IMG/VR virus record: IMGVR_UViG_2636415712_000002
DNA length: 9,616 bases
Reading direction: 5' to 3' (one strand)
Origin: a virus
Taxonomy: Duplodnaviria; Heunggongvirae; Uroviricota; Caudoviricetes
Shown here: positions 5,203 to 6,544 of the stretch, one piece after another
Position numbering within the stretch: the stretch's first letter is position 1
Layout of the letters: the number at the start of each line of letters is the position of its first letter
Made by a program: the position numbers and the translations under genes
Notes under the pieces: generated by a model
Databases searched by the model: none
The model's input: the letters and a program-made list of their open reading frames with translations, nothing else
Told to the model about the DNA's origin: nothing

Positions 5203-6544
5203 TCTTTCACATATTATCGCTGCGGCATTCAATGAGCCGCTGCTTCTGGAGCCCGCCTATGCGCGGGTTTTCTTTTGCGCGCTCGGGCGTGAGATGGGCG
5301 CAGCAAGCCTTTCGGTACCGCAACAGCAGGTACAGCTTGACGCTCCCGGGATGCTGGCTGAAACGGACGAGTACATGGCCGGAGGCAAACGACCTGCCCG
5401 TGTTTACCGGGTGGTGAACGGTATTGCTGTACTGCCGGTGACCGGCACGCTGGTACACCGGCTGGGTGGCATGCGGCCATTTTCCGGAATGACTGGCTAT
5501 GACGGCATTGTCGCCTGTCTTCAGCAGGCAATGGCGGACACTCAGGTACGGGGCGTACTGCTGGACATTGACAGTCCTGGCGGGCAGGCCACCGGCGCGT
5601 TTGACTGCGCTGACATGATTTACCGTCTCCGGCAGCTGAAGCCTGTCTGGGCACTGTGCAATGACACGGCCTGTTCAGCCGCCATGTTACTGGCATCGGC
5701 CTGCTCCCGACGGCTGGTTACCCAGACATCCCGTATCGGCTCCATTGGGGTGATGATGGGCCATGTCAGCTATGCCGGTCATCTGGCACAGGCCGGTGTG
5801 GATATCACGCTGATTTACGCCGGATCGCACAAGGTGGATGGCAATCAGTTTGAATCCCTGCCAGCAAAGGTTCGCCAGGACATGCAGCAGCGCATTGATG
5901 CGGCGCGCCGGATGTTTGCTGAAAAAGTGGCGATGTATACCGGTTTATCTGTGGATGCGGTTATGGGAACAGAGGCCGCCGTTTTTGAAGGTCAGTCCGG
6001 TATTGAGGCCGAACTGGCGGATGAATTAATCAATGCGTCGGACGCCATCAGCGTGATGGCTGCGACGCTGAACACACACGATACAGGAGGCACTATGCCG
6101 CAATTAACTGCAACGGAGGCTGCCGCGCAGGAGAACCAGCGAGTGATGGGGATCCTGACGTGTCAGGAAGCGAAAGGACGTGAACAACTGGCCACGATGC
6201 TGGCAGGGCAACAGGGTATGAGCGTTGAGCAGGCCCGGGCGATTCTGGCCGTGGCGGCACCGCAACAATCTGGTGTATCTGCGCAGAGTGAAGCCGATCG
6301 CATTATGGCATGTGAAGAGGCGAAAGGACGTGAACAACTGGCGGCCTGTCCGGGGATGACCGTGGAGAATGCCCGGGCTGTACTGGCGGCAGCCTCAGGC
6401 AGGGCAGAACCGGTTTCTGCATCCACAACCGCCATGTTTGAACATTTCATGGCGAACCATTCACCGGCAGCGGTACAGGGTGGCGTGCCACAGACGTCAG
6501 CAGACGGTGATGCGGACGTGAAAATGCTCATGGCCATGCCATGA
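5192..6544 (+). CDS. C: Head maturation protease / minor capsid protein C (lambda gpC homolog, S49/ClpP-like), with Nu3-like scaffold C-terminal region
   Basis: GTG start at 5192 overlapping the B stop (5200..5202). Translation ...AFNEPLLLEPAYARVFFCAL..., NGIAVLPVTGTLV, GMTGYDGI, GAFDCADMI, KPVWAL.ND..CSA..LLASA.SRRLVTQT.R.GSIGVMM.H, ITLIYAGSHKVDGN, YTGLSV, TEAAV aligns closely to lambda gpC. Confidence 0.9.
   Translation: MRRNLSHIIAAAFNEPLLLEPAYARVFFCALGREMGAASLSVPQQQVQLDAPGMLAETDEYMAGGKRPARVYRVVNGIAVLPVTGTLVHRLGGMRPFSGMTGYDGIVACLQQAMADTQVRGVLLDIDSPGGQATGAFDCADMIYRLRQLKPVWALCNDTACSAAMLLASACSRRLVTQTSRIGSIGVMMGHVSYAGHLAQAGVDITLIYAGSHKVDGNQFESLPAKVRQDMQQRIDAARRMFAEKVAMYTGLSVDAVMGTEAAVFEGQSGIEAELADELINASDAISVMAATLNTHDTGGTMPQLTATEAAAQENQRVMGILTCQEAKGREQLATMLAGQQGMSVEQARAILAVAAPQQSGVSAQSEADRIMACEEAKGREQLAACPGMTVENARAVLAAASGRAEPVSASTTAMFEHFMANHSPAAVQGGVPQTSADGDADVKMLMAMP
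6095..6544 (+). CDS. nu3: Nu3-like scaffolding protein from an internal in-frame start within C (nested gene)
   Basis: AGGAGG at 6085..6090 followed 4 nt later by in-frame ATG at 6095 (MPQLTATEAAAQENQRVMGILTCQEAKGRE...), corresponding to where lambda Nu3 initiates inside C (lambda ...SRIMGILNCEEAHGREE...). Internal initiation is inferred from lambda biology, not demonstrable from sequence. Confidence 0.5.
   Translation: MPQLTATEAAAQENQRVMGILTCQEAKGREQLATMLAGQQGMSVEQARAILAVAAPQQSGVSAQSEADRIMACEEAKGREQLAACPGMTVENARAVLAAASGRAEPVSASTTAMFEHFMANHSPAAVQGGVPQTSADGDADVKMLMAMP
6161..6343 (+). repeat. Internal direct repeat within the C/Nu3 scaffold coding region (33-bp units 150 bp apart, with an exact 23-bp core)
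   Basis: tgtcaggaagcgaaaggacgtgaacaactggcc (6161..6193) vs tgtgaagaggcgaaaggacgtgaacaactggcg (6311..6343); exact core gcgaaaggacgtgaacaactggc at 6170..6192 and 6320..6342. Encodes C(Q/E)EAKGREQLA twice, each followed by a related GM(S/T)VE(Q/N)ARA(I/V)LA(V/A)A segment. Confidence 0.7.

Follow-up and report, generated by a model that had tools for sequence, protein, structure and literature searches.

A direct repeat in the protease/scaffold gene of a defective Shigella flexneri prophage as a probable deletion derivative of the phage 21 Tri array

We investigated a short direct repeat in a lambda C-type prohead protease/scaffold gene of IMG/VR virus record IMGVR_UViG_2636415712_000002, a stretch of 9,616 nucleotides (nt) of Caudoviricetes DNA that was analyzed over its full length and is called the window here. 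An earlier note on this DNA had described the repeat as an internal duplication. We conclude that it is very probably a two-unit remnant of the three-unit array of Tri boxes found in protease/scaffold genes of the phage 21 type. A segment of 153 nt (51 codons) would have been lost between two copies of the 10-mer AACTGGCGGC at equivalent positions of Tri2 and Tri3. The likeliest mechanism would be RecA-independent replication slippage or template switching, which would have left an in-frame hybrid unit. This loss came after the prophage had become defective and would be best explained by neutral decay at a hot spot where repeats drive indels, rather than by adaptation. An exact identity of 23 nt shared by the two copies would be a separate and older event, most likely a patch of gene conversion. 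The window is the entire draft contig AMJY01000046.1 of the Shigella flexneri assembly GCA_000815665.1, and its protein is deposited as WP_039064754.1 ("S49 family peptidase [Shigella flexneri]"), which is recorded on one contig only.

Two in-frame repeat copies lie in the scaffold part of the gene

The open reading frame (ORF) at 5192-6544 has a length of 1353 nt and encodes 450 amino acids (aa), compared to 501 aa in phage 21. Peptidase_S49 (Pfam PF01343) was found at aa 147-292 of the protein (E = 2.7e-33). The protein is 57% identical to lambda gpC and approximately 94% identical to phage 21 gp5 outside the gap. The genes of the operon follow the order terminase large subunit, gpW, portal, protease/scaffold gene, HDPD (D/shp-like) and Phage_cap_E. 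Both by its domain and by its operon position, the ORF is thus a member of the lambda C/phage 21 gp5-type protease-scaffold group. It contains a nested in-frame ORF, a putative scaffolding gene of the Nu3/phage 21 gene 6 type, whose GGAGG and ATG (6095) are conserved and whose position is homologous to the annotated start of gene 6 in phage 21. The same arrangement of an S49 protease with a nested in-frame scaffolding gene is known from gpC and gpNu3 of lambda (NC_001416.1, 4418-5737 and 5132-5737).

A repeat search of the window returned a direct repeat of 37 nt (6156-6192 and 6306-6342; 86% identity) with a spacing of exactly 150 nt. Its two copies share an exact 23-nt core, GCGAAAGGACGTGAACAACTGGC, at 6170-6192 and 6320-6342. 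Both copies fall within the scaffold part that is common to the long protein and the nested ORF, and both are in frame, encoding CQEAKGREQLA...GMSVEQARAILAVAA and CEEAKGREQLA...GMTVENARAVLAAAS, respectively. With 3 mismatches allowed, the core match was not reproduced in any of 200 dinucleotide-preserving shuffles. Repeat search, shuffles and translation thus confirmed what the earlier note had seen, namely, two in-frame copies 150 bp apart with an exact 23-bp core. When scanned with a hidden Markov model (HMM) of the repeated unit, the window protein yielded two matches (aa 314-358 and 367-404), phage 21 gp5 three and lambda one.

The second copy is a hybrid of the phage 21 Tri2 and Tri3 boxes

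In the GenBank record of the phage 21 head operon (M81255.1), gene 6 carries three repeat_region features, named "Tri1 box," "Tri box" and "Tri3 box," each with the remark "function unknown; putative." The Tri boxes are described in a paper by Smith and Feiss; in the library searched, the literature on phage 21 head genes and Nu3 domains returned nothing on them. The window is approximately 92% identical to M81255.1 at the nucleotide level, and both DNA and protein alignments showed that 153 nt (51 codons) are missing from it. In the alignment, Tri1 is intact; Tri2 is kept over its first 44 nt and Tri3 over its last 58 nt. In the second copy of the window, Tri2 contributes the N-terminal half (...SEADRIMACEEAKGREQLAA) and Tri3 the C-terminal half (CPGMTVENARAVLAA...). 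What the window holds is therefore an array shortened by deletion and not the canonical Tri array. Genes 5 and 6 of phage 21 (M81255.1; complete genome, OL657228.1) represent the same gene, with the same nested arrangement and the same repeat family at the same position; however, phage 21 is a viable phage with three units, whereas the window holds two units in a defective S. flexneri prophage.

Three units were also found in all 19 near-full-length phage matches to the window gene: 18 phage records contain a gene of 1506 nt at approximately 91 to 92% identity, and one more contains a gene of 1500 nt. A partial match to phage D2 likewise spans the extra 153 nt. Moreover, three units in the same order are present in Salmonella homologs (41 to 46% identity) and in others (50 to 55%). 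The array is thus far older than the window allele, since three units are conserved down to the 41 to 46% identity of the Salmonella homologs.

Three-unit sister contigs delimit a 153-nt deletion

The same prophage, with all three units, was found on contigs from four other assemblies (L015 to L018; protein P0090, 501 aa), which start at the same insertion sequence (IS) junction as the prophage part of the window. Compared to window positions 1217-9616, these contigs show 6 to 7 substitutions over the shared length (approximately 8 kb); the longer L015 shows 10, of which 4 lie within the last 17 aligned bases. The sole internal indel is the 153-nt gap. Given that the sister contigs differ by so few substitutions, the deletion is recent. 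In L015, the 10-mer AACTGGCGGC occurs at 5116 (Tri2) and 5269 (Tri3), within an imperfect repeat of 14/15 nt. The missing segment extends from one copy of the 10-mer to the other, and one copy is kept in the window. The endpoints of the deletion are thus set by this 10-nt repeat and not by the 23-nt core. The deletion is in frame because the repeats stand in register, with periods of 150 and 153 nt.

In addition, an allele of E. coli O121 (L004) has three units and is identical to the window on both flanks across a region of 381 nt. Tri3 of L015 to L018 has acquired two nonsynonymous changes, one replacing the R of the conserved "AR" by W (window 6374) and one replacing G by D (window 6399); at both positions, the window and L004 keep the ancestral state. 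Because of these two derived changes, L015 to L018 are sisters of the window allele and not its literal parent. The changes are consistent with relaxed constraint in a dead prophage. The O121 allele (NZ_CP119441.1, C gene at 313-1818) is itself a mosaic: its protease part (nt 1 to 874) holds 56 of the 58 positions at which it departs from the S. flexneri sister allele, and its scaffold part equals the sister allele except for the two changes derived in L015. The annotation of O121 gives its portal gene as a truncated pseudogene.

In E. coli, RecA-dependent exchange usually requires approximately 20 to 25 nt of homology to be efficient. Since the 10-nt homology at the window junction is shorter than this, RecA-independent slippage would account best for the deletion. 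Spontaneous deletions between short direct repeats were reportedly observed in E. coli in the classic lacI studies. In such deletions, one repeat copy is likewise lost together with the intervening DNA, and nothing about the window case is unusual in this respect.

The sister contigs also bear on the interpretation that had been given to the repeat at first, i.e., that a single lambda-like unit was duplicated in this lineage and that the copies were kept partly identical by ongoing homogenization. Lambda and most of its relatives do have one unit, and an identical core within otherwise diverged units resembles gene conversion. However, copy 2 is a precise Tri2/Tri3 chimera of three-unit alleles that are otherwise nearly identical to the window, and the core identity predates the two-unit state, since it is seen in three-unit sisters of an array that is far older. 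The single-duplication view is effectively refuted by the three-unit sister contigs, and we consider it very improbable. What stands of the proposed duplication of an approximately 50-residue scaffold unit is a repeated module of approximately 40 to 50 residues; as to its origin, the pair is the remnant of a three-unit array and not the product of one duplication.

The prophage was defective before the deletion

We observed two lesions in the genes surrounding the array. Compared to FDAARGOS_943, the closest complete-genome relative (98.7% identical), the window has one extra T in the portal gene, which is thereby split into ORFs at 3609-4664 and 4579-5202. The resulting run of six T residues is also found in L008, L009 and L015 to L018. 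Since it recurs on six contigs from other assemblies, this run is a true lesion that marks the entire lineage, rather than an error of sequencing. The second lesion concerns the small terminase gene: prophage homology begins approximately 200 nt inside this gene, and its 5' end is missing in the window. Both defects are also found in the three-unit sisters, and the 153-nt deletion therefore struck a prophage that was no longer intact. Selection on head assembly could therefore not act on the deletion, which would accordingly be best regarded as neutral.

The Tri array is a hot spot of in-frame indels

Length classes of the gene were obtained from a search with the full-length protein (120 listed clusters) and resolved with the unit HMM (Table 2); a search with the 149-aa scaffold region returned mostly gene fragments. 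The other length alleles of E. coli and Shigella are likewise in-frame indels in the same Tri array, associated with short direct repeats, but their breakpoints differ from that of the window. The 472-aa allele has lost 87 nt bounded by CGC within an imperfect 12/13-nt repeat, the 451-aa allele 150 nt bounded by GCCCG and the 482-aa allele 57 nt bounded by GC within a 7/8-nt repeat. The claim that the array expands and contracts was thus borne out by multiple in-frame length alleles. The 472-aa allele belongs to the same defective prophage lineage as the window and shares its portal frameshift; at least two independent in-frame deletions have therefore hit the array after the prophage died. 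The head modules of the 482-aa and 551-aa alleles look intact, while the 451-aa allele lies in a rearranged prophage without terminase and portal genes.

Gains of sequence were also noted. At the locus of the 551-aa allele (L014, 6001-7656; GCA_900537015.1), we observed an exact tandem duplication of 150 nt, and its two copies each have an N at the corresponding position. This locus does not translate to the indexed 551-aa protein, and the four-unit allele may be an assembly artifact. The E. coli protein P0089 (657 aa) gives six unit matches and contains a tandem duplication of approximately 156 aa, which takes in the end of the protease domain and the Nu3 start together with Tri1, Tri2 and a portion of Tri3. 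In three further E. coli proteins, P0199 and P0200 (577 aa) and P0201 (721 aa), C-type sequence is fused right after Tri3 (...AVLAAGSG/...) to tail-fiber-like sequence; judged by their sequences, these proteins appear to be deletion chimeras of the head and tail-fiber regions of prophages.

We considered whether the window allele itself might be an artifact of assembly or sequencing, with three units in the genome and a repeat collapsed in the draft. The two-unit allele is a singleton on one 9.6-kb contig; its junction gave zero matches in the viral, genome-representative and metagenome collections, and the protein junction EQLAA/CPGMTV was present in no other protein retrieved. In addition, the L014 allele, with its N at the repeat junction, may be an artifact of this kind. 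However, the exact match of Tri2 and Tri3 at the junction measures just 10 nt, too short for a k-mer or overlap collapse, and elsewhere the two boxes have diverged strongly; different deletions in the same array occur in dozens to thousands of independent assemblies. An artifact is thus highly unlikely.

We also weighed the possibility that the number of scaffold units is tuned by selection, through valency, assembly kinetics or protease loading, and that the two-unit allele is functional. Unit number ranges from 1 to 3 across the family and was multiplied independently in several lineages; the 482-aa allele, with its partial Tri2, is very widespread; and the variants are all in frame, with the hybrid keeping a predicted helix-loop-helix. 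Against this, the portal frameshift and the IS-truncated terminase gene predate the deletion and leave no room for head-assembly selection on the window allele, and the same dead lineage has undergone a second, different deletion. Moreover, sister alleles are gaining nonsynonymous changes at conserved unit positions, and the matched isolated phages keep the full-length gene. An in-frame outcome is in any case expected from repeats in register at 150 or 153 nt. Adaptive tuning of the window allele is therefore hardly credible, and the deletion is better described as decay of a three-unit array.

The identical core predates the deletion

The 23-nt identity of the two copies is confined to one lineage. 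The number of core positions at which Tri1 and Tri2 differ is 4 for the phage 21 type, 3 for the FDAARGOS_943 type and 0 for the S. flexneri/O121 lineage, in which the identity is already present in three-unit members. In seven other alleles, the Tri1 core reads GCGAAAGGACGTGAACAGCTTGC. With phage 21 as the reference, the identity came about through two changes in each of Tri1 and Tri2, and all 4 are directed towards the paralogue, a pattern whose rough null probability is 1e-6 to 2e-3. Only 20 to 21 of 47 positions in the sequences flanking the core are identical (approximately 43 to 45%). We hold with moderate confidence that the core identity arose through one or two short intragenic gene-conversion tracts that are older than the deletion. 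The idea that the copies had been "kept partly homogenized" thus gains moderate support in that all changes point towards the paralogue, with the restriction that the core is identical only in the S. flexneri/O121 lineage. The core had also been put forward as a substrate for recombination; this holds for protein P0205, a Tri1/Tri2 fusion formed inside the core, but not for the window deletion, which used the 10-nt repeat.

A regulatory role of the repeat core at the DNA level was considered and rejected: the CII-site pattern in the C/Nu3-type gene falls outside the core, and the pattern TTGYN6TTGY occurs in the window at chance frequency (2 found versus 1.86 expected). One sequence fitting this pattern is TTGCAGTTAATTGC at 6100-6113 on the minus strand, and the phage 21 genome record annotates a CII site at the homologous place. 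The antisense ORFs at 6104-6337 and 6163-6537 (minus strand) were regarded as incidental to a coding strand rich in GC and in Ala codons.

Most members of the family carry a single unit

We then determined how many units are typical. A tblastn search with a single unit matched 262 places in 242 phage records, of which only approximately 20, all phage 21-like, showed more than one place; approximately 220 of the 242 records thus have one unit. One place each was found in lambda, 434, N15, phi80, HK225 and Stx1 phages and also in phages of Serratia, Aeromonas, Vibrio, Klebsiella, Proteus, Xylella and Pseudomonas. When 1.84 billion representative proteins were searched with the unit profile, 424 clusters were retrieved. 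Among the 143 newly retrieved representatives, 127 contained one unit, 10 contained two and 6 contained three, with none above three. The multi-unit representative proteins belong to several unrelated lineages. The scaffold unit was independently multiplied in other lineages (P0227, P0231 and P0233; P0333; P0282; P0351); one of these proteins has near-identical tandem units of 46 aa and another has two units separated by a PTPPTPP linker.

In lambda, the unit was assigned by the HMM to gpC aa 357-400. The motif ENSRIMGILNCEEAHGREEQARVLAETPGMTVKTARRILAAAP, which is homologous to the window units, occurs a single time in gpC, as the earlier note had stated, and the unit HMM agrees. Apart from the number of units, lambda differs from the window in its linker and C-terminal tail. 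After the lambda unit, at gpC aa approximately 410 to 416, the sequence ALDRLM aligns with EADRIM, which opens the phage 21 Tri2; this could be the vestige of a second unit or a chance likeness. Thus, the family as a rule has one unit, the phage 21 subfamily has an old and conserved array of three, and the two units of the window are a recent, derived state. The note had named a common ancestral two-copy arrangement in lambdoid C/Nu3 proteins as what would make its duplication unremarkable; in spirit, this is what the homologs returned, with one copy typical of the family and three typical of the phage 21 subfamily.

The unit is predicted to form a helix-loop-helix

The unit comprises approximately 40 to 45 residues with the consensus (E/L)xDRIMxxxEAKGRExLAxxLAxxPGMTVExARxILAA. 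No Pfam family covers it. A helix-hairpin-helix (HHH) assignment for xPGMTVExARxIL was rejected: the Pfam model HHH (PF00633) matched Tri3 of phage 21 below threshold (E = 0.097; 13 bits compared to a cutoff of 24) and did not match the window protein. Searches of solved structures by sequence gave no meaningful match, with only designed helical tandem-repeat proteins at E values of approximately 0.08.

AlphaFold2 models of the two-unit and three-unit Nu3-type proteins reached a predicted local distance difference test (pLDDT) score of 55.8 and 52.9, respectively, and a predicted template modeling (pTM) score of 0.21, and only their secondary structure was used. Both models showed every unit as helix(-helix)-loop-helix; the linkers between the units are Pro-, Gln- and Ala-rich and of low confidence. 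In the hybrid unit, the helix-loop-helix is preserved, with predicted helices at aa 64-82 and 90-100 of the 149-aa protein. This predicted pattern fits a flexible helical scaffolding protein.

Interactions reported for lambda, including two-hybrid results, connect Nu3 with itself, C, B and E (PMC3224144). The unit is a reasonable candidate for one of the Nu3 contacts because it is the most widely conserved part of the scaffold region. Presumably, it would form part of the flexible helical scaffold, which binds to itself and to the capsid and portal proteins while the prohead is assembled. A bolder proposal, which we regard as improbable, is that the Tri unit is a modular capsid/portal-binding element whose number (1 to 3) acts as a dial of scaffold/protease valency, changed by slippage. 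If this were true, prohead assembly or protease packaging would be altered in alleles such as the two-unit hybrid and the 482-aa form, which would then be functional variants and not products of decay.

Coordinates and length alleles

The features of the window are collected in Table 1. Downstream of the protease/scaffold gene, in the spacer before the D/shp-like gene (6581-6928), we observed a 2-nt length difference at 6571-6572 and several substitutions compared to FDAARGOS_943. These differences at 6571-6572 fall between the Shine-Dalgarno sequence and the ATG of this decoration-protein gene.

Table 1. Features of the 9,616-nt window
Feature	Positions	Strand	Remarks
IS600 and another IS3-family fragment adjoining the prophage	1..1217	.	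Prophage homology starts ~200 nt inside the small terminase gene
Run of six T residues (five in intact relatives) that frameshifts the portal gene (3609-5202)	4597..4602	+	Common to six sister contigs
Lambda C/phage 21 gene 5 homolog, S49 prohead protease with C-terminal scaffold region	5192..6544	+	450 aa
Nested in-frame Nu3/phage 21 gene 6-type scaffolding ORF (predicted)	6095..6544	+	149 aa; GGAGG at 6086-6090 before ATG 6095
Tri1 box (unit 1), intact	6162..6265	+	~aa 314-358; mapped from the M81255.1 annotation
Exact 23-nt core, Tri1 copy	6170..6192	+	
Hybrid unit, N-terminal half of Tri2 (to ~6345) and C-terminal half of Tri3	6302..6403	+	~aa 367-404; copy 2 of the earlier note
Exact 23-nt core, Tri2 copy	6320..6342	+	Matches the Tri1 copy exactly in the S. 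flexneri/O121 lineage only
Deletion junction, single remaining copy of AACTGGCGGC	6336..6345	+	Two copies exactly 153 nt apart in three-unit sisters

Table 2. Length alleles of the protease/scaffold protein
Length	Occurrence	State of the array
501 aa		Canonical, three units
482 aa	66 of the 120 listed clusters; one allele indexed in 3592 blocks	C-terminal half of Tri2 deleted
451 aa	20 clusters among the matches listed	Tri1/Tri2 fusion at EQAR/PILAAS
452 aa	5 clusters among the matches listed, including O157:H7	Fusion at AILAAAAP/LADAGPSL
472 aa	S. flexneri	Junction AILAVAAP/LAAMPEMTV
435 aa	One cluster among the matches listed	Fusion inside the core, CQEA/NGREQ
497/498 aa	Few clusters among the matches listed	Small deletions within Tri2
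551 aa	Two clusters among the matches listed	Four units
657 aa	One cluster among the matches listed	Larger tandem duplication

Discussion

In this work, the repeat of the window was traced to the Tri array of phage 21-type protease/scaffold genes. Several points weigh against this account or parts of it. The two-unit allele is known from a single draft assembly, and the status of the Tri boxes as known elements derives from a GenBank annotation that itself qualifies them as putative and of unknown function. The argument for gene conversion is post hoc, as the allele was noticed for its identical core. The neutrality of the deletion was deduced only from defects in neighboring genes, and the hybrid protein may well still function. 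Finally, the confidence of the structural models is low, and the fold of the unit and its binding partners are therefore tentative. Even with these points taken into account, we regard the descent of the window repeat from a three-unit array by deletion as the most probable explanation by far.

The locus is thus to be reread as the contraction of a known triple repeat in a decaying prophage and not as a fresh duplication, and in itself it is of little importance. The Tri2/Tri3 hybrid allele is new only in a trivial sense, the repeat itself being already annotated. The variation between one and three units, together with the many in-frame indel alleles, is perhaps useful to those working on head assembly of lambda and phage 21, if unsurprising to them. 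The natural alleles with one, two, two and a half, three and possibly four units offer material for testing how far the scaffold unit is required in lambda and phage 21. For the family, most lambda-like S49 protease/scaffold proteins have the scaffold unit as one conserved module, and in the prophages of E. coli and Shigella it is a hot spot of in-frame, repeat-mediated indels.

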